A DNA stretch of 63,180 nucleotides, filler included. It is 5 parts of 5 records of this genome, joined end to end, with 100 filler letters (N's around TTAATTAATTAA, not from the genome) between each part and the next. Parts side by side here need not be neighbours in the genome. Positions count along the whole stretch, not along the records: positions 1 to 17,606 come from SRR2962707_2579; 4 more parts are not named here. One strand, given 5' to 3'. This document shows, in pieces, positions 270 through 11,053 of the stretch. A model generated the notes under the pieces. That model made no database searches. It saw nothing but the letters and a program-made list of their open reading frames with translations, and was not told the origin of the DNA. Position 1 is the stretch's first letter; every line of letters starts with the position of its first letter. The translations under genes and the position numbers were made by a program.

Positions 270-614
270 TCAGTTTTGCGGTGTCGGGGTGGTCGGCTGC
301 GGCACCGTCGGGGTGCTCGACGGGGCGCTCGGTGTCGATGACGGCGCCGGCGTCTGATCCAAAATCGATCCCGATTCGCGGCCCTGGCTCGCCATGATCG
401 CCAGAACGATGCTGGTAATGATGAAACAGGTCGCGAGGATGGCGGTCGTACGCGTCAAAACATCGGCTGCTGCACGGCCGGACATGAAACCGCCGCCGCC
501 GCCCCCGCCGCTGCCGCCCATGCCGAGTGCACCGCCTTCGGAGCGTTGCATGAGGATCACCGCCACCAGGGCGATGGCGAGAATCAGATGAATGACGAGG
601 ACAACCGTTTCCAT
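270..614 (-). CDS. secG: Preprotein translocase subunit SecG
   Basis: Two TM segments, LMQRSEGGALG motif, LTRTTAILA; tpiA-secG-pyrG synteny. Confidence 0.95.
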   Translation of the reverse strand: METVVLVIHLILAIALVAVILMQRSEGGALGMGGSGGGGGGGFMSGRAAADVLTRTTAILATCFIITSIVLAIMASQGRESGSILDQTPAPSSTPSAPSSTPTVPQPTTPTPQN

Positions 615-812
615 AGTGCGTTCGTCTCCTGGACCTTTGAACGGGGCGTGTTCTAACGGCTTAAGCGGGTTTTGGCCAGCCCGGATTTCATATGGGCCCT
701 TTCCAGCGTGTGCGCAACATTATCGCGGCACGGTCCGGGACGTGCGGAAATGGCTAGTGTGCACGAATTGGTCACCTTGACTCTCGGATAGGTTTAATTT
801 AATAAGATACTT

Positions 813-852
813 AAGTCCCGGGGAGCAGTGCGCCTGCATCCCGGGACTTTTT
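813..852 (+). terminator. GC-rich hairpin followed by a T-run, upstream of the putative toxin gene
   Basis: AAGTCCCGGG (813-822) pairs with CCCGGGACTT (840-849), inner GCAG/CTGC pairing, T-run to 852. Confidence 0.5.
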
Positions 853-879
853 CTTGTCCTGGCCCTCAGCCGGGATACT

Positions 880-905
880 GCCGCCCCTTCCGGGCGGCTT
901 TTTTT
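880..905 (+). terminator. Intrinsic terminator-like hairpin ~30 nt before the putative toxin start
   Basis: GCCGCCC-CTTCC-GGGCGGC-TTTTTTT. Confidence 0.65.
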
Positions 906-937
906 ATTTCAGCAACATGGATCAGAGGAGTTTCCAG

Positions 938-3037
938 ATGGGAACCACCGACAATACCGCTGTGCAGGCAGCGACGCAGAACCTGCAATCGCGTTCAACG
1001 GCTAAATCCGGCACCAAGTCCGCCTCATCCGGTCTCTCCGGTTCTGTCGGCATGGGCGCCGAAAACGCGCCGGAAGACGTCATGAAGGTCTCGGGGGCGC
1101 TCGCCGCCAACGGCCTGATGGACGCACCGCAAAGCCACGCTGACGCCACCCTCTTTAAGGGGATCATCGGCGCGCAGGAACGAATGGACGGCACCCTCAA
1201 GCGCGACGGGCTGGTTAATACCGGCGGACCGACGGAGCAGACGTTCTCGCGTCTTGCCGGTCAGGGTTTCGTGAAGCCCGCACCGGCGCAGCCCGCGACG
1301 CCAGCGCAACCGGCTACCGGAGACGCGGTCCTGAACGCCGAACGCCGTGTCGGCAATAAACAGAATGCCGTCGCCGCCGCCGAGGCCCGCGTGAAAGCAA
1401 ACCTGAGCGACGACAACCGCTCCGACTATCGCAAGGCACAGGACCGCCACCGGCTGGACAAGGCCCGTGACGACGCCGAACGTGCCCAGGGCCGCGCCCG
1501 GCACGAGCAAGCCGAGCAGCGCCGCCGCCTGGAACAGCAAGCCGCGGCCCAGCAAAAAGCCAACGCCGCTGCGCAGCAACAGGCGGTTCAGGCCAGAAAG
1601 GCCGTGAATGCCGGTCTGACGAAACTCGTCGGTCAGGCGGGCAAATCCATCGGCAACGCTCTTAGTGATGCGCAACAAGGCGTTGCGCGTACAAATCCCG
1701 TAACGCTCTCCGACGCGGCCATCGGCGCCAACCGGCGCACGGCGGATGCGCTGAAACGCCGCACCACGGTCGGCGACCTACCCCGCTTCACCGTTGATGC
1801 CATCAATAGCGATGGTGAGAAAGCGGTGCACGAGGTCGCGGACATGATCGAACAGGTGCACGCGAGCGATCCAGCGCAGGCGCAAGAGCTGTTCGCGCGC
1901 ACCGCTCGGGGCATCGGGGCCGCGGACCGCACCCGCCTCGAAGAACTGCTCCGGGGCGGCGGTGTGATCGATGAGCGCCTGCATGGCCGCCTGCCCGGTC
2001 AGCCGATGGACGGGGCCCTCCCCGACCATCGCACGAAAGTGTTGCGGCTTGAAGACCTGGGCAATCCCGACGACGCACGGCGGGACATGCTGCACCGTCC
2101 CGGTCAGGACAAGCCGGAGATGATGCCACTAAAGGCGAAAGCCGAAGCCGCTACCGGTGCACACCCGGCGGAAGCCGATGGCGCAACCAGACCGGCCGAG
2201 GCGAAGACTGGTTCGGATGATCTCAAATCGCCGGATGACCTGATGCTGGAGCCGGGTGCCAAGTACCGCGATCCGGATGAATGGACGGGTAAGCTCGGCG
2301 AGACGGCGGGTGACATCCGCGGCGCCGCTGCCGACGTTGCCAAGTCGGCATGGATCAATCCCACCGGCAGCCCGCAGGAGGTGAAGGACAACCTGTCCGA
2401 CCTCTCGAAGGAATACCGGGCCAAGGGTTACACCAAGTCTGCCGATAACCTGGATCATTTCCTGAACGGCAAAGGAAAGTCTGTAACGGTTTCCCGAGAC
2501 GATGCCCGAAAGGACCCGTTCATCCGGGACGCCGAGATAGAGAACCGGGAACGGTTCGAGAAACGGACATTCGTCGGGGACACTCAGAATAATACGGATG
2601 TCAACGAGGGCCTTCGTAAACTCAAGGACGGAGAGACGGTAAGACTGAAAGACGATTGGTCTGTCGAGCGAAAAGCTGGCGGAGCAATCGACGATCTTGT
2701 TTCCCTCGACCGTGCGAAGCGGGACGATGCGTTGTCGGAGGGCCGCAAGGATTTTGAATCCATTGCCGACTTTTCCGCGACCCGGCGTGGTGACAAGATC
2801 CATATCAAGGGCCGTGTGGATCATGACGGAAGCGAGCGTTACGACTTTGAGGCTGGCGATCTCGGCGATGTCATGGGTGCTAAGGGATTGGCCGATGCCG
2901 GTCTTGCCCATGAATTCGACACAATTCGCAAGTGGGGTCAGTCCTTCGAAGGGACGGTCGACATATCGCCGGGCAAGAACGGCAACGTTCTTTCCAACCC
3001 ACAGTTCAGTTGGTCGGATGAACTGTCAGATAACTGA
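938..3037 (+). CDS. Large modular protein, putative polymorphic toxin (PG-binding-like N-domain, coiled-coil/low-complexity linker, colicin-M-like C-domain)
   Basis: Long ORF; GAGGAG RBS just before ATG 938; N-terminal LSGSVGxGxxNxxEDV...KRDGLVNTGGPT; C-terminal DNLDHFLNGKG...GRVDHDGSERYDF...GLAHEF; paralogous tip fragment downstream. Confidence 0.6.
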   Translation: MGTTDNTAVQAATQNLQSRSTAKSGTKSASSGLSGSVGMGAENAPEDVMKVSGALAANGLMDAPQSHADATLFKGIIGAQERMDGTLKRDGLVNTGGPTEQTFSRLAGQGFVKPAPAQPATPAQPATGDAVLNAERRVGNKQNAVAAAEARVKANLSDDNRSDYRKAQDRHRLDKARDDAERAQGRARHEQAEQRRRLEQQAAAQQKANAAAQQQAVQARKAVNAGLTKLVGQAGKSIGNALSDAQQGVARTNPVTLSDAAIGANRRTADALKRRTTVGDLPRFTVDAINSDGEKAVHEVADMIEQVHASDPAQAQELFARTARGIGAADRTRLEELLRGGGVIDERLHGRLPGQPMDGALPDHRTKVLRLEDLGNPDDARRDMLHRPGQDKPEMMPLKAKAEAATGAHPAEADGATRPAEAKTGSDDLKSPDDLMLEPGAKYRDPDEWTGKLGETAGDIRGAAADVAKSAWINPTGSPQEVKDNLSDLSKEYRAKGYTKSADNLDHFLNGKGKSVTVSRDDARKDPFIRDAEIENRERFEKRTFVGDTQNNTDVNEGLRKLKDGETVRLKDDWSVERKAGGAIDDLVSLDRAKRDDALSEGRKDFESIADFSATRRGDKIHIKGRVDHDGSERYDFEAGDLGDVMGAKGLADAGLAHEFDTIRKWGQSFEGTVDISPGKNGNVLSNPQFSWSDELSDN

Positions 3038-3056
3038 ACGATATTAATGTTGGTAT

Positions 3057-3090
3057 CACTCCGCCGTCTTCGGGCGGCGGAGTGAAAAAA
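3057..3090. terminator. Hairpin between the toxin-like gene and the first immunity-like gene
   Basis: CACTCCGCCGTC-TTCG-GGCGGCGGAGTG followed by A6. Confidence 0.5.
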
Positions 3091-3118
3091 GGATGCCGGT
3101 CCTTGTATAGGATGTTTG

Positions 3119-3721
3119 ATGAGCAGCGAAACAGACAGGACCAATGATATGAAGCAAGACCGAGAACCAGAGCACAATACGCGGGAAGCGGAGCATAATT
3201 CCATGTCTAGGCTCAAGCGCCGCGCTTGGCTTGTTGTGGTCATGGTTTTGGTAGGTACCGCGACATGGATCATGTACTTGCCGGCAAAATTTTATGATCC
3301 CCATTGCCACCCGAAGTACAGACATGTCGTCGGCGAATATTACGGCCCGCATCTTTCGGCACATTATCGCAACGCATTGAAAGATAATTTGTCAGCGAGA
3401 GGTGTCGCTCACATCGAAATCGGCGACCGTGTACTGGTCCCATTTGTCGATCCGGGGTATCTGGACGAGCACAAGATTGGTCTCGAAAGATTGATAGATT
3501 ACTTTCTCGGCTACGGTGAGAAATCTTGGAGATTGACGCACTGGAAAGTGACAAACAGCGCGGTTATTAGATACCGGGCCAAATATCCGGATTCTGAGAT
3601 CGCTCGTTTGTATAATCTCCCCCACGACAAGATGTTTTCTGAGGATGAATTAACGGTGGGCGAAAAGCAGGCAATCTGGTGCGACCTGACCAAACGTATC
3701 GTTGATCCGAATTTAAAATAG
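3119..3721 (+). CDS. Single-TM membrane-anchored protein, putative immunity protein 1
   Basis: Basic stretch RLKRR, then a hydrophobic helix and a soluble domain with PxC...PxLSxxY...DRV...WC; paralogous to 4184-4729. Confidence 0.6.
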   Translation: MSSETDRTNDMKQDREPEHNTREAEHNSMSRLKRRAWLVVVMVLVGTATWIMYLPAKFYDPHCHPKYRHVVGEYYGPHLSAHYRNALKDNLSARGVAHIEIGDRVLVPFVDPGYLDEHKIGLERLIDYFLGYGEKSWRLTHWKVTNSAVIRYRAKYPDSEIARLYNLPHDKMFSEDELTVGEKQAIWCDLTKRIVDPNLK

Positions 3722-3793
3722 CTCTGCGTATCGAAAAGCTCCCCATCAAGGCCGTGGTCGGCCCGAACTTGAAATAGTTCCCGCCACTACGAC

Positions 3794-4049
3794 GACAAAA
3801 ACCCTATCAGAGGAACTGTTTCCCATGATGGCGGAGACACCCACGATTTCAACGACAGTGACGCCTCTCTCGGTGCATACGACCTCTCTCGGTGCATACG
3901 AATTGCAACAGTCAGGGCGCGGGAAACCTTTTAAGGTTGTTCGCAACTGGCAGCAGAATGTCGAGGGAACGGTGGACATTGTCGGCACCGACGACAATGG
4001 ACGGCTGATTCTGGGCAACCCGAAATTCCAGTGGCAAGACCGGAACTAA
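3794..4049 (+). pseudogene. Orphan toxin C-terminal fragment, frameshifted
   Basis: GAYELQQSGRGKPFKVVRNWQQNVEGTVDI...LGNPKFQWQD aligns with GAKGLADAGLAHEFDTIRKWGQSFEGTVDI...LSNPQFSWSD; removing a 19-bp duplication extends homology upstream (DKNPIRGTVSHDGGDTHDF vs DKIHIKGRVDHDGSERYDF). Confidence 0.85.
3864..3901 (+). repeat. Perfect 19-bp tandem duplication
   Basis: CCTCTCTCGGTGCATACGA at 3864-3882 and 3883-3901. Confidence 0.97.
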
Positions 4050-4060
4050 CATTTGAGCAA

Positions 4061-4092
4061 CGCCCAGAAGTTCGTTCAACGGCTTCTGGGCG
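4061..4092. terminator. Hairpin between the orphan tip and the second immunity-like gene
   Basis: CGCCCAGAAG...CTTCTGGGCG inverted repeat. Confidence 0.45.
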
Positions 4093-4183
4093 TCGCTACT
4101 GAAATATAAATGCCCTAATCCGTATATAGAAAAGAAATATACCTAATTTTTGCAAAAGACAGTTACGAGATAGGAATTTGCCA

Positions 4184-4729
4184 ATGAGTTCGAATGCACC
4201 CCTTCGTTCCTGGATCGTTGATCTGATCAGGTGGCTACGCGCCCGCATCTTGCCTGAGACCGTCTTGACCGCGATCTTGGTGTTGGGGGTGGCATATCTT
4301 GGCTTGCGGGTGCTCCTCTATCCTTACCCGGTCCATCTTCACTATCCGTCATGCAACGAGCATCGAGTCACCTTTTCCCCCGATCTGTCGCCACGTTACC
4401 AGGAACAGATAAGAGGACATTTCGCCAACTTCGATGTGCCCTACGCCATCATTGAAGACCGGGTTTATGCGTCAGGTGAAGGCGTTCATTTTGACAACAT
4501 CAACAAGCAAATCTGGCTTTTGGCGAACCCTGATCGTCAAGGACTGAGAACTTTGACCGACCGAGACAATATGACGCACGAATTGTTTCGTCGCTGGGAG
4601 GAGATGGAGAGCGGCCGTGAAAAAAGGCACGCGTGGTGCTTGGTCGTTGAGGCTGTTGTTACACAAACAGGAATCGATGTTGAGACCAGGCGTGAACATC
4701 CGGACATTTGGGTGCCCGACAAATGGTAA
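4184..4729 (+). CDS. Single-TM membrane-anchored protein, putative immunity protein 2
   Basis: TM VLTAILVLGVAYLGLRVLLY, then YPSC...PDLSPRY...EDRVY...AWC; same motif order as 3119-3721. Confidence 0.6.
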   Translation: MSSNAPLRSWIVDLIRWLRARILPETVLTAILVLGVAYLGLRVLLYPYPVHLHYPSCNEHRVTFSPDLSPRYQEQIRGHFANFDVPYAIIEDRVYASGEGVHFDNINKQIWLLANPDRQGLRTLTDRDNMTHELFRRWEEMESGREKRHAWCLVVEAVVTQTGIDVETRREHPDIWVPDKW

Positions 4730-4752
4730 GTGTTCGCTGAGTGATCGGCGAT

Positions 4753-4775
4753 CCTGAATCAAGTTCAGGGCAGGC
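4753..4775. repeat. Short REP-like palindromic insertion
   Basis: CCTGAA-TCAAG-TTCAGG palindrome interrupting a patch homologous to toxin codons GD|LPRFTV. Confidence 0.5.
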
Positions 4776-4882
4776 CTCCCCCGCTTCACCGTGAAGGCAA
4801 ATGGTGAAAACGAACGCTGGGACGCCTTGCGGCCATAGCGGATTTCAGGGTGGTACACGAATAGGTCTAAACGTGTGCCGCC

Positions 4883-5507
4883 CTACTTCCGCAATCTGAA
4901 TGGGACAGGGTCCCGGATGTAGTCCGCCATGTGAAAATCGCCGTATATATACCAACCGTTGGGACCTGAACGTAACAGAAAGCTTTGAAGCGGGCGCACT
5001 GCCGGTCGCAGGTCGCACTCGCCAGCAATAGGTTCACCATCAACAGTCTGCTTCGCGCCCCCCCAACGCACCATGAATGCTACATCGCCCGGTTTTAGAA
5101 ACTTCTTGGTTTCGTAAATGCGGTCTTCTTGCTGGTACACCCAGTAGCCGGTGATTTGGTAACAAGAAAAATAAGGATTATAGGGGGGGCGGCGTGATAA
5201 GTTTTTTTATAAGCGGTCGTTCGCCGTATGCGATTTCGCGAAGTTTATCTTTTTTGTAAAAACTGCCGGCGATATATGTATCGACGGCGCACAGCGGCGT
5301 AATCGGATTGCCGATGCACTTGCTTGTCGTCGCTGCCGGGTCGCCCTCCTTGATGAACCTTGTTTCGAACAGCGGCGGCGGCACATTTTCTGGTCCGCCC
5401 ATGGAAACCTCATCGGCATGCACCGGTGCTGCTGCGCTCATCAGAAGCGCGATGCACAATGCCGTTCGTGTCATCCATCCGGTCATGATTGCCAGTTTAA
5501 CGCGCAT
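4883..5507 (-). pseudogene. Secreted hypothetical protein split by a 1-nt frameshift in a homopolymer
   Basis: ORF 5507-5178 (signal peptide, TSKCIGNPITPLCAVDT) overlaps an open frame 5206-4883; deleting one C of the C7 run (plus-strand G 5183-5189) fuses them: ...ITPPPYNPYFSCYQITGYWVYQQED... Confidence 0.65.
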
Positions 5508-5511
5508 GCCC

Positions 5512-5544
5512 CTGCCCTCCAATCGTTCGTTCATCGAAGGCTAT
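5512..5544 (-). promoter_or_regulatory. 33-nt shared leader with RBS, copy 1
   Basis: 31/33 identical to 6542-6574; contains GGAGG; ends 4 nt before ATG 5507. Confidence 0.75.
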
Positions 5545-5564
5545 TGTGTTGGCGCGATTTTTGG

Positions 5565-5828
5565 CTATTCAGCGTCGTCCCCGAATGAAACGTCGCGCCC
5601 GATATATTTTCGGGCGGCGTCGCGGGCGGACTGTTCGTCGGGAAACGGGCCTTCGGCCCCGCAACACCCAGGGCCGCAAAAGGGCAGCAGATAATAACCC
5701 GTTTCCTTCGGCGGCCCGCCGCGCCACTCACTAGAACCGAATTTCAGCTTCAATGGGTCTTCCCCTGTTTCGCCTTTGCGGCGGAACACGATCTCAGGGT
5801 CCTCATAATATTTATCGCTGTCACTCAT
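5565..5828 (-). CDS. Hypothetical protein, 87 aa, with a CGPGCCG motif
   Basis: ATG start with GAGG upstream; co-oriented with neighbours; no family recognised. Confidence 0.5.
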   Translation of the reverse strand: MSDSDKYYEDPEIVFRRKGETGEDPLKLKFGSSEWRGGPPKETGYYLLPFCGPGCCGAEGPFPDEQSARDAARKYIGRDVSFGDDAE

Positions 5829-6042
5829 TTGGCTGCCTCAGTGGCGTCAGAAACAACAGTCGGGTTGGATGGTGTGAACCGGCGTTATGCCTGCGAACAA
5901 CATACGCACACTGGTATCTCCTCGTTGCTCCAGTGAGGGAGCCGATCCAATCTTATCATACTACTAATGGGCGATTTTTCAACGGACCGGTTCGGGAAGA
6001 AGTCCGGGCCGGTCCGGTTGAATCTAGCGGCGGGCAGAATGT

Positions 6043-6537
6043 CTACCGCTTGTATTCCTTGCGTTGGTCGATGACATTGCGAAGAATATCTTCATACGCA
6101 TGAGCTAGAAAGCCGTTGTGCGCAGGATGAAAGAACGTACCACACGACGGAAAGGGGCAGCCTTTGTGTTCGTTATAAAGGCTCCAATAAAAGCCGCCCA
6201 AGGCAAAACGTATTTCTTTCATTTTCGCCGCGATCTGCTCGCGCGTTAGCGAGTCCGGCTCAATAAAATCTGCCGCATTGTCGATGATCGCCTTTTCCAG
6301 GCAAAGCGCGCTGTCCAAATTACCTGCCCTCATATCTTCTGCATTCTGTGAGGATCGAAGTTCTTCGGATATATCCCACCACCCCTTAATAATCGTGTCT
6401 GCATCTAGGATGACAATCGGTTCGTTGCCACCGGCGTTCGCGTATGCGGGCATAAGCTGAGCAGCGATAACAATCCCGATTGCAACAACCTGCGCATGAA
6501 TATTGATCCGTTTCATGAATTGAATTCTATGCATCAT
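6043..6537 (-). CDS. Secreted hypothetical protein
   Basis: Signal-peptide-like N-terminus ending AYA/ANA; Cys pair in GCPFPSCG; RBS supplied by the shared leader. Confidence 0.65.
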   Translation of the reverse strand: MMHRIQFMKRINIHAQVVAIGIVIAAQLMPAYANAGGNEPIVILDADTIIKGWWDISEELRSSQNAEDMRAGNLDSALCLEKAIIDNAADFIEPDSLTREQIAAKMKEIRFALGGFYWSLYNEHKGCPFPSCGTFFHPAHNGFLAHAYEDILRNVIDQRKEYKR

Positions 6538-6541
6538 CGTA

Positions 6542-6574
6542 CTGCCCTCCAACGGTTCGTTCATCGAAGGCTAT
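6542..6574 (-). promoter_or_regulatory. 33-nt shared leader with RBS, copy 2
   Basis: ATAGCCTTCGATGAACGAACCGTTGGAGGGCAG on the minus strand, ending 4 nt before ATG 6537. Confidence 0.75.
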
Positions 6575-6637
6575 GCAAGGATGGGAGGGATTAATTGCTT
6601 AACCCGGTCTTGCTCGTTGAGAGGGACTGGCGCGGAG

Positions 6638-7390
6638 TCAGGGCGCGGCGTCGGCAATCGCCGTGAAGTCTTCGGCCTTGAGACTGGCGCCACCGATCAG
6701 GCCACCGTCAACATCCGCGAGCGCAAGCAGTTCAGCCGCGTTGGACGGCTTCATGGAGCCGCCATACAGCAAACGTACGCCGTACGCCGTGGCATCGCCG
6801 AAACGTGACGCGAGCGCGGCACGGATGGCAGCGTGCACTTCCTGCACTTCGTCCGAAGTCGGTGTCCTGCCGGTGCCGATCGCCCAGACAGGCTCATACG
6901 CGACAACTAGGTTTTCCGCTGTGCAGCCGTCCGGCAATGAACCGGCCAGTTGCGATCCAACGACGTCCAGGGTTTTGCCGGCATCGCGCTCGGCTTCTGT
7001 TTCGCCGACGCAGACAATGGCCGCGAGACCGGCGCGGTGGGCGGCAACCGCCTGGGCGCAGACAGTGGCGTCGGTTTCACCGTGATCGGCCCGGCGCTCG
7101 GAATGGCCGACAATGACATAGCTGCAGCCGAGATCGGCAAGCATTTCCGCCGCCACATCCCCGGTGTGGGCACCGGAAGCGTTCGGATGGCAAGTCTGCG
7201 CGCCCAGCATGATATCGCTTTCCGAGATCATGGCGCCAACGGGACCCAAGTACGGAAATGGCGGGCAGATCAGCATTTCGACATTACCACCACCCTGCCA
7301 GGCAACCAGACCGTCGGTCAGCGTTTCCGCCATTTCACCGCTGGCGTTCATTTTCCAGTTTCCGGCAATCAATGTGGTGCGAGCAGCCAT
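6638..7390 (-). CDS. tpiA: Triosephosphate isomerase
   Basis: [37 protein letters not shown]. Confidence 0.98.
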
Positions 7391-7620
7391 ATTCGTATGT
7401 CCCCTGAAATGATGAAAAGCGATAGCTAATTACCACGGCGATCCAATGGCTTCAATTCGCCAACGCGCTATTGCCGCCCCCTTCCCCGTTCCCTAATATG
7501 CCGCCGCCATTGGGATGTGCCAATTCAATGTATTTGGGTGGCAATGGGGTGGCGGTCCGGCATTTTGCCGACCACTTTGATGTAAACGCAGACACAACGA
7601 AGATACTGGGAATTTTAGGC

Positions 7621-9528
7621 ATGCTCCAAGCGATCCGCAGCAAAACGGCATCCATCGTCGTCAAGGCCCTGGCCGGGCTTCTGATCATCAGCTTTGCCGC
7701 ATGGGGCATTCAGGACATCCTCGTCACCAGGGCGTCTGAACTGAGCGTAGCCAGTGTTGGCGATCATGACATTGATCCGGTTGAATTCGATTATGAACTG
7801 AGCCGTGAAACCCAGCGTCTGCGCCAGAGCTTCGGCGGCAGTCTGACGGAGGAACAGCTTGTCGGTCTCGGGATCGGCAATGCCGTCCTGCAGCGTATGA
7901 TCAACGATGCCGCACTTGCCGAAAAGGCCGAGAGCCTCGGCATTCTGGTGTCGGACGAACAGGTGACACGCGCCATTCACAATGACGCCGCATTCCACGG
8001 GTTCGACGGCAAGTTCAGCCGCAACCGGTTCAATGAAGTGATGCGGGCGAACGGATTTCCCGAGCAGGTCTATATCGAACGTGTGCGGGCGGATATCGCC
8101 TTGCGCCAACTGGTGGGTGCCGTTGATCATTCCCCTGCCGCACCGAAGAAAATGACCGAGATGCTGCGCTCCTTCCGTTTTGAAAAACGAACCGCCGAGA
8201 CACTGTTGATCTCGGCCAGCGACCAGGCCGATCCCGGTACGCCGACGGAAGAGCAGATAAAGGAAGTCTATGACGAACAGTCGCAGCGCTTCACGGCACC
8301 GGAATACCGGAAGATCACGTATGTGCACCTTGATCCGAAACTGCTGATGGATGACGTCGCTGCCACGCCCGAGGAATTGCAGGCAGCCTATGACGCCAAT
8401 GCGCAATCGTTCATCAAGCCGGAACAGCGGACCATCCAGCAGATCGTCTTGACGGATGAAGCGAAAGCAACGGAAGCCGCGCAGATGTTGCTTCAGGGCC
8501 AGGACTTCATGAAGGTGGCGACCGACTTTGCGGAAATGGAACCGGCGGCTGTCAACCTGGGGTCGGTGACCCGTGAAGGCCTGCTGCCCGATCTGGCAGC
8601 GGCAGCCTTTGAACTGGATAGCGGCTCCATTGCCGGTCCGATCAAGTCCCCGCTCGGCTGGCATATTCTCAAAGTCACCGAAATTGACAAGGGCTTTACC
8701 AAGGCCCTGGACGAGGTGCGCGATCAATTGGCGGAAATCGTTAAACGCGAGCACGCGATTGATGGTCTTTATGACCTGTCGACCCGCTTCGAAGATCAGA
8801 TCGGCGGCGGCGCCACGCTCGAGGAAGCCGGCGCCAGTGTCGGTTCGCCCGCGGTTACCATCGAGGCCGTAGATCGTGAAGGTAAAGCACCCAGTGGCGC
8901 AGCCGCTGCCGGACTGCCCGAGCTTGCAAGCCTCCTGCCGGTGGCCTTTGCCGCTGAACAGGGGATCGAGAGCGAGCTGACTGAAGCCGGCGACAAAGGC
9001 TTCTTCATGGTTCGTGTCGACAACGTTATCGCCCCTGCCCTGAGACCACTCGCCGATGTGCGTGACGAGGTTGTTGCCGCGTGGAAAGAACAGCAGCGGA
9101 TCAAGAGCGCCGAAGCACAGGCAAAGGAATTGGCGCAACTTGTTAACGGCGGGACGGATTTCAAAACACTGGCAGGTATCGTCCCGGCATCGATTGAAGC
9201 CGTTGGCCCGATCACCAGGGCTGATCGGGAAAAAGCATCAAGCTCCGTGATCGCCAAGGTATTCGAATTGCAGCCGAATAAGGCCGACATTGCCCGAATT
9301 GGTGATGATTATGTGGTTGTTCATCTGCTTGAAGTCATTTCTCCGACTTCCGGTGAGGAAACCATGAGCCTCAGTGAAATGGATGGCTTGCTGGATCAGG
9401 ATGTCGGACGTGATCTTTCTGCCCAGTTGATCGAGGCGATGCGAAGCGAACTTGGCGTCGAAATCAACCAGCGTGTTTTCAATGCAGTGATCAAACCTGG
9501 CCGATTTGATCCGAACCAGCCGCTCTGA
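7621..9528 (+). CDS. ppiD: PpiD/SurA-type periplasmic chaperone with parvulin domain
   Basis: N-terminal anchor LLIISFAAWGI, SurA-N region, parvulin motif PIKSPLGWHILKV; tpiA-ppiD-trpE synteny. Confidence 0.88.
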   Translation: MLQAIRSKTASIVVKALAGLLIISFAAWGIQDILVTRASELSVASVGDHDIDPVEFDYELSRETQRLRQSFGGSLTEEQLVGLGIGNAVLQRMINDAALAEKAESLGILVSDEQVTRAIHNDAAFHGFDGKFSRNRFNEVMRANGFPEQVYIERVRADIALRQLVGAVDHSPAAPKKMTEMLRSFRFEKRTAETLLISASDQADPGTPTEEQIKEVYDEQSQRFTAPEYRKITYVHLDPKLLMDDVAATPEELQAAYDANAQSFIKPEQRTIQQIVLTDEAKATEAAQMLLQGQDFMKVATDFAEMEPAAVNLGSVTREGLLPDLAAAAFELDSGSIAGPIKSPLGWHILKVTEIDKGFTKALDEVRDQLAEIVKREHAIDGLYDLSTRFEDQIGGGATLEEAGASVGSPAVTIEAVDREGKAPSGAAAAGLPELASLLPVAFAAEQGIESELTEAGDKGFFMVRVDNVIAPALRPLADVRDEVVAAWKEQQRIKSAEAQAKELAQLVNGGTDFKTLAGIVPASIEAVGPITRADREKASSSVIAKVFELQPNKADIARIGDDYVVVHLLEVISPTSGEETMSLSEMDGLLDQDVGRDLSAQLIEAMRSELGVEINQRVFNAVIKPGRFDPNQPL

Positions 9529-9541
9529 CAGGGACGGCACA

Positions 9542-11053
9542 ATGAAAATTCAGCCCGATTATGATGGCTTCCGCGAGCTTTATGAGAGCGGTAAGACGCA
9601 GGTTCTATGGTCCGAGATCGTCGCCGATCTGGAGACGCCGGTATCAGCCATGCTCAAGCTGGCAGCAGAACGGCCCAACAGTTTCCTTCTGGAGTCCGTA
9701 GAAGGCGGCGCCATGCGGGGCCGCTATTCGATCATCGGGTTTGATCCGGATCTGATCTGGCGCTGTTTTCCGGATGGGGCCGAGATCAACCGCAACGCCC
9801 TCAGCGATCCCGAGAGCTTTTCACCCTGCCCGGTAGCTGAAAAGGACGGTGCGCTGGCGTCACTTCGTTCTCTCGTCAATGAGTGCCGGTTTGATGTCCC
9901 CGACCATCTGCCGCCGATGGCATCTGGACTGGTCGGGTATATGTCCTATGACATGGTACGGCTGGCCGAGCGCTTGCCGGATGACAACCCGGACACCATC
10001 GGCGTTCCAGACAGTATCTTCCTGCGCCCAACGGTTATGGCGATCTTTGATTCATTGAAGGATTCCGTCTTTATCATCACGCCGGTCTGGCCGGCCGATG
10101 GTGTCGATGCCGCGACGGCTTATGCCGCTGGCGAGGCCCGAATTGCAACGACGGTGGATAATCTGGCCCGTGATGTTTCCCTGCCCCGTGCCAGCAATGA
10201 AACCGAAGTCGTGCCGTTGGAACCGACGTCGAACATGACGCGTGAGGCTTTTCACGACGCCGTGCGAAAATGTGTTGAGTATATCAACGCGGGTGATGCT
10301 TTTCAGGTGGTGCCGTCACAGCGTTTCAGCGTGCCGTTCAAGCTGCCGCCGTTTGCGTTTTATCGCTCGTTGCGGCGCCTGAACCCCTCGCCGTATCTGT
10401 ATTTCCTGAATTTCGGTGATTTCCAGGTGGTCGGTTCCAGCCCGGAAATTCTGGTGCGTGTGCGTGACGGGCGGATTACGCTGCGTCCCCTTGCCGGAAC
10501 GCGAAAACGTGGCACGACAGCGGAAGAAGACAAGGCACTGGCAGAAGATCTGCTCAGCGATCCGAAGGAACTTGCCGAACATCTGATGCTTCTTGATCTC
10601 GGACGGAATGATGTCGGACGTGTCGCCAAGATCGGCACGGTCGCGCCGACGGAAAAATTCACCATCGAGTACTATTCGCACGTGATGCATATCTCGTCGA
10701 ACGTCGAAGGTGATCTGGCCGACGGCAAGGATGCCCTGGATGCCTTGTTTGCGGGGTTCCCGGCCGGGACCGTTTCCGGCGCACCGAAAATCCGGGCCAT
10801 GGAAATCATCGATGAGGTCGAACCCGCACGCCGGGGTGTCTATGCCGGATGCATCGGCTATTTCGGAGCCAATGGGGACATGGATTCCGCCATTGCGCTC
10901 AGAACCGGGGTTATCAAGGACGGAACACTGTATATTCAGGCCGGTGGCGGCGTCGTTGCCGACAGTGATCCCGAATTCGAGTTTCAGGAGTCCGTCAATA
11001 AAGCCCGTGCCCTTGTGCGGGCCGCCGAGGATTCGGTGAAGTTCTCGGGCTGA
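9542..11053 (+). CDS. trpE: Anthranilate synthase component I
   Basis: FLLESVEGG, NPSPY, GSSPE, EHLMLLDLGRND, FPAGTVSGAPKIRAMEII. Confidence 0.97.
   Translation: MKIQPDYDGFRELYESGKTQVLWSEIVADLETPVSAMLKLAAERPNSFLLESVEGGAMRGRYSIIGFDPDLIWRCFPDGAEINRNALSDPESFSPCPVAEKDGALASLRSLVNECRFDVPDHLPPMASGLVGYMSYDMVRLAERLPDDNPDTIGVPDSIFLRPTVMAIFDSLKDSVFIITPVWPADGVDAATAYAAGEARIATTVDNLARDVSLPRASNETEVVPLEPTSNMTREAFHDAVRKCVEYINAGDAFQVVPSQRFSVPFKLPPFAFYRSLRRLNPSPYLYFLNFGDFQVVGSSPEILVRVRDGRITLRPLAGTRKRGTTAEEDKALAEDLLSDPKELAEHLMLLDLGRNDVGRVAKIGTVAPTEKFTIEYYSHVMHISSNVEGDLADGKDALDALFAGFPAGTVSGAPKIRAMEIIDEVEPARRGVYAGCIGYFGANGDMDSAIALRTGVIKDGTLYIQAGGGVVADSDPEFEFQESVNKARALVRAAEDSVKFSG

Follow-up and report, generated by a model that had tools for sequence, protein, structure and literature searches.

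What occupies the space between secG and tpiA in this marine Rhodospirillales-type bacterium? The window, that is, the whole 63,180-nucleotide (nt) stretch of DNA analysed here and along which all positions are counted, carries secG at 270-614 (minus strand) and tpiA at 6638-7390 (minus strand), with about 5.9 kb of non-housekeeping DNA between them. An earlier reading made from the letters alone (hereafter the sequence-only reading) had placed a candidate polymorphic toxin-immunity system between these two genes, and had listed a modular gene of ~700 amino acids (aa), a gene for a protein with a single transmembrane (TM) segment, a fragment homologous to the last ~85 aa of the large gene, a second such TM gene and a match to a central motif of the large gene. 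All of these elements were located in the window, as were the two flanking genes. The explanation which we favour, at a probability of roughly 0.65, is a polymorphic toxin-immunity island in which a constant carrier bears an exchangeable C-terminal tip of predicted colicin-M-like (ColM-like) fold, and in which the gene downstream of the tip would provide immunity. The logic of such an island is classical; its carrier domain, tip family and immunity family are new or unannotated.

Modular organization of the large gene and its homologues

The large gene (P0001; 938..3037, plus strand) was delimited as an open reading frame (ORF) and by alignment of its homologues, and encodes 699 aa; proteins and loci are given P and L numbers where they have to be told apart. 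Its ATG start is common to all full-length homologues, the first residues of which read MG.TDN.A, and an AGGAG lies 8 nt upstream. The protein is made up of a conserved N-terminal peptide (MGTTDNTA), a PG_binding_1-like domain (aa 31-112, nt 1028-1273), a region rich in Ala, Gln, Arg and Glu (~aa 128-250), a conserved central domain containing the motif GDLPRFT (~aa 253-346, nt 1694-1975) and a variable linker followed, from aa 427 (nt 2216), by the exchangeable tip. In the proposed toxin the first four of these, including the charged, Ala-rich stretch, would constitute the carrier. The protein possesses neither a hydrophobic segment (maximum 19-residue Kyte-Doolittle mean 0.53) nor a signal peptide and has no match in Pfam (none at E<=1), NCBIfam, PHROG or PADLOC, the last two of which returned nothing for any protein of the window.

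The sequence-only reading had noticed a peptidoglycan (PG)-binding-like motif at the N-terminus and none of the domains by which known polymorphic toxins are trafficked, and on both counts the searches agree with it. Rhs/YD, FHA, PAAR, VgrG, LXG and MuF domains are absent above the Pfam cut-off from P0001 and 10 of its homologues, and the MafB N-terminal domain and the two-partner secretion (TPS) domain are absent from P0001 by Pfam and NCBIfam. A trace of LXG on the central domain of two homologues (E 0.08-0.09) fell below the cut-off and was dismissed. Comparison of aa 31-112 with the N-termini of tip-bearing proteins using hhalign gave a probability of 99.1% (E 1e-18); the comparison set included P0006 and P0010, in which PG_binding_1 is verified by Pfam, the remainder having been taken from the 89 longer tip carriers, 36 of which have this domain. 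By this profile comparison the N-terminus of P0001 appears to be a real, if remote, homologue of PG_binding_1-type N-termini and can be described as a divergent PG_binding_1-like domain. In the ESM Atlas the N-terminal 420 aa again led to PG_binding_1 clusters, at 0.76-0.77, which is below the level that counts.

Sixteen homologues of P0001, 384-850 aa in length and covering 15-64% of the query, were retrieved from 5.8 billion proteins. When aligned, they have the N-terminal ~200-450 aa in common (76% identity between P0001 and P0004 over the N-terminal part) and then diverge into at least seven unrelated C-terminal types. Similarity to homologues with other tips stops at nt 1534-2275, and similarity to proteins which possess the same tip on a different N-terminus (P0006, P0008 and P0010) starts at aa 427, nt 2216. 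A drop in GC content coincides with this boundary, the large gene having a GC content of 0.65-0.69 over its N-terminal two thirds and of 0.55 in its last third. Among the other tips on the same scaffold is a PBECR1 nuclease, found in P0018 (30.1 bits, cut-off 27.6) and also in L002, L015 and L016. The P0004- and P0011-type tips appeared by eye to be muramidase- or transglycosylase-like, a guess which was dropped since neither Pfam nor PHROGs supported it.

Scanning of genomes and metagenome contigs for the family yielded 7 and 25 loci, respectively. Seven loci (the window, L001, L002, L003, L004, L005 and L013) carry, downstream of a full gene, orphan copies which lack the N-terminus and begin either in the central domain (residues ~221-326) or within the tip. 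One metagenome contig has the same order: the tip, the immunity gene and, after it, sequence which resumes at nt 1691, where the central domain starts. Each of three tip types is accompanied by a neighbour family of its own in 3/3 loci. A member of the first membrane-protein family (imm1) follows the ColM-like tip at three loci (the window, L001 and L005); next to the P0007-type tip, in L001, L002 and L005, the opposite strand encodes a 272-aa protein with a hydrophobic N-terminus; and the P0013-type tip is adjoined by a single-TM protein of ~231 aa, again encoded on the opposite strand, once in L004 and twice each in L003 and L013. At the latter two loci a separate copy of this neighbour accompanies the P0013-type orphan. 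The search of the N-terminus against genomes which the sequence-only reading had proposed thus returned the opposite of full-length conservation without linked small genes: the C-termini vary, and behind them come small genes, which vary as well, and orphans reduced to the tip. Such a pattern is the defining one of polymorphic toxin-immunity loci, and it agrees with the logic which that reading had attributed to the locus. As a separate observation, the stretch 12671-14034 of L005 contains an orphan module whose tip is an alpha/beta-hydrolase (Abhydrolase_1, 29.9 bits, cut-off 25.8); the 131-aa ORF downstream of it has a hydrophobic segment, and the two are another candidate toxin-immunity pair.

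In these respects the family resembles the CdiA, Rhs and MafB systems, all of which combine a constant N-terminal part with variable tips, an immunity gene adjoining each tip, displaced tip-only orphans downstream with immunity genes of their own, and a conserved recombination arm ahead of the tip. Unlike them, it has no TPS domain or FHA repeats, no YD repeats, no MafB N-terminal domain and no signal peptide, and the immunity candidates of two of its tip types lie on the opposite strand.

The present tip and its membrane-anchored neighbour

The core of the present tip (aa ~481-694; 2381..3034, plus strand) was characterized using phmmer, an AlphaFold2 model, Foldseek, VIA-align and motif counts. 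Its family comprises 305 representatives at E<=1e-3 (HMMER/phmmer, 1.84 billion representatives searched), in which, with few exceptions, the match occupies the extreme C-terminus and the protein is 200-575 aa long. The 89 longer carriers include 36 with PG_binding_1 and one with PG_binding_2, no other Pfam domain being present, and a simple hydropathy test revealed a signal-like or TM stretch in none of the 89. The window tip is 73-76% identical to those of P0006 and P0027; a word-index search with the tip region found 4 proteins, and tblastn of the tip against plasmids found nothing. Among the 150 matches listed are four short ORFs (P0036, P0060, P0128 and P0130; 68-94 aa) whose match is confined to the final ~70-80 tip residues. 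Their start at about residue 615 is shared by the orphan of the window and by a fragment in L001, and this position could be either a recurrent break point or the edge of a separable sub-domain.

The AlphaFold2 model of the tip, built on a 57-sequence input, has a pLDDT (predicted local distance difference test) of 91.7 and a pTM (predicted template modelling score) of 0.86. At E<=1e-3 Foldseek retrieved PaeM alone (E 9.4e-4, probability 0.99, TMq 0.33), and down to rank 15 its matches are all colicin-M-type bacteriocins or the C-terminal domain of BtpeA, a type VI secretion system (T6SS) effector of Bacteroides fragilis (PDB 9jdi). The same proteins occupy ranks 2-5 of a wide VIA-align search (Z 6.4-7.0, 140-170 residues, root-mean-square deviation (rmsd) 4.2-6.7) and fill ranks 1-12 of a second look (Z 5.3-7.3, 141-171 residues). 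The BtpeA domain matches as well as the bacteriocins do and at an rmsd lower than theirs (rmsd 4.2; Z 6.4 over 166 residues; sequence identity 10-16%). When the tip profile was compared with PDB sequences, PaeM was one of five matches at E<=10, with an E-value of 1.7.

The signature of ColM is given as DxYDx5HR (PMC5821083). Its D/E-x-Y-D core is retained in the tip family, in 50, 56 and 54 of 57 sequences at the three positions. The residues conserved in these 57 sequences are R616 (56), H629 (49), D/E633 (50), Y/F635 (56), D/N636 (54) and F637 (53), together with G625, and can be summarized as R..H..DxYDF, the conserved Arg and His lying upstream of the DxYD core. P0001 keeps this signature except for D633E and W631G. 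On fold-match scores which are moderate, a colicin-M-like fold is likely. The tip family is a widespread, unannotated C-terminal domain of predicted colicin-M-like fold with a rearranged set of conserved R, H, D, Y and D residues.

The gene which follows (P0002; 3119..3721, plus strand, starting at TTG 3116 or ATG 3119) specifies the first immunity candidate, the homologues of which follow the same tip in L001 and L005. It is predicted to have a single TM segment (aa ~37-55; hydrophobic peak 2.07 at residue 37) with the N-terminus inside, positive charges being found ahead of this segment. It has seven database relatives at 36-99% identity, four of them at 74-99%, and in these eight sequences C64 and C189 of the C-terminal domain are invariant, which fits a periplasmic, disulfide-bonded domain. 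In the ESM Atlas, P0002 was placed beside unnamed clusters at 0.77, below the level that counts.

The second candidate (P0003; 4184..4729, plus strand, starting at TTG 4178 or ATG 4184) also has a single predicted TM segment (aa ~29-47; hydrophobic peak 2.33 at residue 29) and is without a homologue in any of the loci fetched. The sequence-only reading regarded it as a paralogue of the first. Both cysteines which are invariant in the P0002 family do align in P0003, but the relationship is weak, a profile comparison giving a probability of 43% (E 2.5e-4) over 49 columns. The locus also yields a new family of membrane-anchored immunity candidates.

The tip would probably act in the periplasm of the target cell on a lipid-linked cell-wall precursor, and the downstream protein, anchored in the membrane with its cysteine-bearing domain facing the periplasm, would protect the producer. 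If the tip cleaves lipid II, it represents a new sequence family in a small enzyme group of antibacterial interest.

Several results weigh against this reading of the pair. The TM-scores of the fold matches are low (0.25-0.36) with an rmsd of 4-7 Å, and every Z value is below 8, the level under which VIA-align may reflect merely a common arrangement; an unrelated pseudopilin chain (GspK) ties at Z 7.0 with 96 residues aligned. The tip has no match to Pfam Colicin_M (PF14859), and the HR of DxYDx5HR is missing from its usual place, positions +6/+7 being mostly P and G in the 57 sequences. The tip profile was found in 0/401 genomes of a sample of the class, in a search which had no positive control; PF14859 was likewise found in 0/401 in the phylum sample, where the control genomes were silent as well, and that count is hence uninformative. 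On the immunity side, the model of the periplasmic domain of P0002 is of moderate quality (pLDDT 71.6) and resembles no solved fold, Cmi and BtpiA included (best Foldseek E 0.56, VIA-align Z 3.5), and the likeness between P0002 and P0003 is faint by BLASTP (21% identity, E 0.024). Finally, no device for export or import was identified, and Pfam scans of P0001, its homologues and the longer tip carriers revealed no known trafficking domain. Co-folding of tip and immunity protein, which the sequence-only reading had proposed as a check, is evidence neither way: a joint model of the tip (aa 489-699) and the periplasmic portion of P0002 scored 0.00 against a mark of 0.34, in a run which had no controls and in which the fold of the partner is uncertain.

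The best structural matches to the tip are colicin M, PaeM, syringacin M and pectocins M1 and M2. Like these ColM-type bacteriocins, the large protein is modular, lacks a signal peptide and bears the putative killing domain, with its DxYD core, at the C-terminus. Unlike them, it lacks the Pfam match, has no HR at +5 and has its conserved Arg and His ahead of DxYD; the N-terminal part (PG_binding_1-like domain and GDLPRFT) is unrelated, orphan tips occur in arrays, and the host is of the marine Rhodospirillales type. The ColM domain is itself placed in the polymorphic toxin set in PMC5821083, which describes the colicin M immunity protein Cmi as membrane-anchored, with a periplasmic module which acts in the periplasm. 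The proposed immunity protein would share this location on the periplasmic side; unlike Cmi, P0002 has no detectable Cmi/YebF-like fold. A "Novel Colicin M-like" toxin domain with a membrane-anchored, BamE-like immunity protein is described in the Lipocone preprint (10.1101/2025.01.14.632903). There too a divergent ColM-fold tip occurs in polymorphic toxins together with a membrane-anchored periplasmic immunity protein, but those toxins have lipoboxes and an N-terminal cystatin-like domain; compared by description, the two may or may not be the same family.

Probable earlier occupants of the site and associated features

Downstream of P0002 lies what is left of a diverged, now orphan tip from the same family (3776..4049, plus strand), which matches residues 613-694 of P0001 only and has neither a start nor an N-terminal part. 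It is frameshifted, the match being divided between 3776-3889 (38% identity) and 3888-4040 (42%), with a joint tblastn E-value of 1.3e-7; it is 60% identical to the end of P0039. The change of frame is due to a perfect 19-nt tandem duplication (3864-3882/3883-3901, plus strand; repeat family D5). The duplication looks recent, for in a metagenome contig which is related and covers 3459-4014 the sequence is shorter by 19 nt.

Beyond the second TM gene there is a further remnant (4758..4838, plus strand), in which 4782-4835 encodes 18/18 aa of the extreme C-terminus of P0004 and P0019, followed by a stop at 4836-4838. The sequence-only reading had taken this region for a relic of the central motif of the large gene. 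The match that it saw is real (17/18 nt between 4775-4792, encoding LPRFTV, and 1777-1794), but the similarity is isolated and ends there; the simplest reading of the alignments is that 4758-4838 is all that is left of a P0004/P0019-type tip since displaced, namely its 3' tail with the final 18 codons.

The two remnants suggest two earlier occupants of the locus, one represented by the ~85-aa orphan and its TM gene and the other by the tail, in an order of events that we infer. New cassettes of tip and immunity gene would arrive by recombination, with the conserved central domain serving as the upstream homology arm. Each arrival would displace the prior tip, the 3' remnant and immunity gene of which would stay behind, and the window would record at least two such replacements: one leaving the orphan with the second TM gene, the other an 18-codon tail of a third tip type.

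The surroundings are those of a variable island, the approximate extent of which (692..6636) was deduced from a contig joining 691 to 6637 and from short or truncated versions in L008, L020 and L030. GC content is 0.60-0.69 in the flanks and over the N-terminal part of the large gene and 0.49-0.55 from about nt 2400 to 6400 (0.49-0.53 downstream of the large gene), and it rises again at tpiA. Metagenome contigs from one run (X4) join 691, in the region upstream of secG, to 6637, at the end of tpiA, with 14 other letters in between, which represents an empty site; those from another (X3) join 1775 to 6637, breaking off at the GDLPRFT motif and continuing into tpiA. Stumps of the family gene stand between the same two genes in L008 (287 aa), L020 (190 aa) and L030 (176 aa), and L005 carries a long array there. 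The secG-tpiA site is thus a hot spot, at which successive tip replacements are naturally recorded, in compact form, by empty, truncated and expanded alleles. The family was not found in any of 41 relatives of the nearest genome in the collection. Together with the GC drop at the tip boundary and the empty and truncated alleles, this suggests an island which is accessory and mobile in character.

Four minus-strand ORFs without a family match (4883-5140, 5178-5534, 5565-5828 and 6043-6564; from ORF calling and family searches) fill the rest of the low-GC island. Two of them, 5178-5534 and 6043-6564, begin with a hydrophobic, signal-like stretch and have a 33-nt start region in common. Since other tip types have their partners on the opposite strand in L001-L005 and L013, these four ORFs may be immunity genes of lost tips. 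The shared region is a 33-nt direct repeat (94% identical; 5512-5544 and 6542-6574) which spans the start regions of both ORFs. L008 and contigs of two metagenomes join 5532 directly to 6568, and the segment of ~1 kb between the repeats is therefore variable.

The sequence-only reading had reported a hairpin after each toxin-like stop, and three such hairpins, all on the plus strand, stood out from 200 shuffles of each fold, 0/200 being as good in any of the three cases. The first, with a 13-bp GC-rich stem, lies between the toxin stop and the immunity gene (3056..3085; free energy (dG) -29.4, z -4.5), the second after the orphan stop (4056..4097; inverted repeat I12; dG -28.0, z -5.9) and the third after the stop of the tail remnant (4847..4884; dG -25.2, z -4.5). 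The spacers after the two single-TM genes showed no significant fold (z -0.05 and -1.4), and none of the three hairpins was classed as a T-tailed terminator. Comparable hairpins follow the toxin stop in L001 (13075-13215, z -3.7), L005 (17834-17960, z -6.1; its stem resembles that of the window) and L002 (11726-11830, z -4.3); in L003 and L015 no strong hairpin was seen at this position.

Two further, terminator-like hairpins make up a 5' leader (813..908, plus strand; inverted repeat I5). Their stems are at 813-849 and 880-898, the latter followed by a T run, directly upstream of the ribosome-binding site and ATG of the toxin gene, secG pointing away. Both stems are kept in an alignment of 12 loci with base changes on both sides, and also precede family genes at other chromosomal sites, which suggests a leader or insulator moving together with the toxin gene. 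The sole Rfam match near the locus, anti-hemB at 839-907, is below threshold (27.2 bits versus 49.5) and was taken as a likeness between terminator hairpins.

Delivery, phage context and competing explanations

Polymorphic toxins are classified by their N-terminal part, which decides the route by which they travel. Five family-carrying genomes, two of them recorded as "chromosome: 1" and none of them the genome of the window, were screened for known secretion systems. The T6SS sheath gene TssC (PF05943) was found in 0/5, the control being positive in E. coli, and the type IV secretion system (T4SS) ATPase gene VirB4 (PF03135) in 0/5, with a positive result in one control genome. Since the scaffold fits no described class and neither gene was found in its carriers, the results point to an unrecognised delivery route, which would be of a new kind in Gram-negative marine bacteria. 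The distinct delivery class proposed by the sequence-only reading is compatible with these counts but is not demonstrated by them.

The neighbours of the family gene at some other loci provide a lead on delivery. A full-length T7-type portal gene (phrog_332, E 1e-109) lies directly beside it in three lineages (L003/L033, L012/L013 and L016/L036), and in the same three lineages it is also adjoined by a scaffold-like gene (Phage_T7_Capsid, 46.7 bits, cut-off 27.1). These neighbourhoods were mapped to 7207-9871 and 17470-20691 of L003, to 2767-5572 of L016, and to L012/L013 and L033. Two tail-protein genes (phrog_1640, E ~1e-25) are found 6-9 kb downstream in L003.

Such neighbours raise the possibility that the toxin logic is as set out above but the carrier is derived from a phage, and is packaged or ejected, in the manner of the MuF toxins, travelling in or on a T7-like particle or its remnant, the copy in the window being a detached descendant. 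The portal, scaffold-like and tail-protein genes all speak for it, as does the Pfam name of PBECR1, "phage-Barnase-EndoU-ColicinE5/D-RelE like nuclease". An N-terminal PG_binding_1 domain in the absence of a signal peptide is moreover the layout of modular endolysins from phages of Gram-negative bacteria. A phage-borne precedent exists in the MuF toxins, which PMC5576092 describes as polymorphic toxins of temperate phages; with these the family has in common a PBECR-type tip, a portal neighbour in three lineages and the lack of a classical secretion signal. Unlike the MuF toxins, it possesses no MuF domain or PHROG match (none for P0001, P0013, P0004, P0005, P0011 or P0012), and most of its loci are outside a phage context: at the window, L001, L002, L005, L008 and L020 the family gene has no phage neighbour. 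Searching 50,697 phage records by tblastn with the N-terminal 426 aa revealed nothing, and a scan of viral contigs gave one locus, the L016 contig itself. Among the ORFs inspected at the portal loci no capsid or tail-tube gene was noticed, these not having been the object of a search, and a portal is present in just 3/5 carrier genomes, in two of them as an N-terminal fragment elsewhere in the genome. On balance a phage-derived carrier is unlikely.

Could the locus instead be an endogenous cell-wall or lysis module, with an endolysin-like protein controlled by the downstream TM protein as holin, spanin or regulator? The PG_binding_1-like N-terminus without a signal peptide and the phage-remnant contexts of some relatives would suit such a role, as would the downstream protein, in which a single TM segment is combined with a large periplasmic domain as in holin T of phage T4. 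A lysis module does not account for PBECR1 nuclease and alpha/beta-hydrolase tips on the same scaffold, nor for the fact that every tip-only orphan retains its own downstream gene; tip and neighbour strictly co-vary, as would be expected of immunity but not of a generic holin, and neither TM protein of the window matches a PHROG. We consider this explanation quite improbable.

Hardly probable, too, is the idea that the island is decaying insertion debris without function, in which the large ORF has stayed open by chance or was acquired recently. It gains from the truncated versions between secG and tpiA, from the frameshift in the orphan and from the family gene being split in L006, L009-L011, L014, L019, L021 and L022. 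The 699-aa frame is nevertheless intact and aligns from end to end, with P0004 over its N-terminal part and with P0006 and P0027 over the tip; the enzyme-like signature is kept save for the two substitutions named above, and the cognate immunity gene is intact, its product being 74-99% identical to four database proteins. As to the split genes themselves, the division is the same at all eight loci (ORFs of 165 or 236 aa plus one of 146 aa), which stem from one marine lineage assembled several times independently; a pseudogene common to these loci, programmed frameshifting or faulty assembly of low-complexity sequence could each account for it.

Least likely of all is that a known secretion system (T6SS, T4SS or similar) exports the protein as a cargo effector, by way of an adaptor motif unrecognised so far, for although BtpeA, according to the title of its PDB entry, is a T6SS effector with a ColM-like C-terminal domain and PG-binding domains are among the accessory domains of polymorphic toxins described in PMC3482391, delivery of BtpeA is by a T6SS, the sheath gene and VirB4 were each found in 0/5 carriers, and PAAR, VgrG, Hcp, MIX and LXG gave nothing above the cut-off.

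Returning to the toxin-immunity island, the PG_binding_1-like N-terminus, the charged stretch and the GDLPRFT domain might, tentatively, define a new trafficking class which does without type V, VI, VII and IV secretion systems (T5SS, T6SS, T7SS and T4SS), with its ancestral home beside T7-type portal and scaffold genes. Exit from the producer and entry into the target could then depend on a device or particle derived from a phage portal, or on colicin-like release and uptake in which MGTTDNTA is recognised. Because the same type of N-terminal domain occurs on hundreds of signal-less proteins with ColM-like tips, the reach of such a class may extend well beyond the Rhodospirillales. Literature searches directed at this class yielded no description of a signal-less class of polymorphic toxins with an N-terminal PG-binding domain, with the proviso that the supplements of PMC5821083 and of the Lipocone preprint may bear on the point.

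One further site is of note in connection with T7-like genes. Next to tldD, L034 (1462-2589) and likewise L035 contain a 375-aa ORF which starts as an N-terminal fragment of the portal protein, 68-71% identical to that of L016, and the C-terminal part of which, in L034, is terminase-nuclease-like by eye. Judging from this composite ORF, the tldD site may hold a collapsed T7-like prophage; in L003 and L015 the same site carries the family gene.

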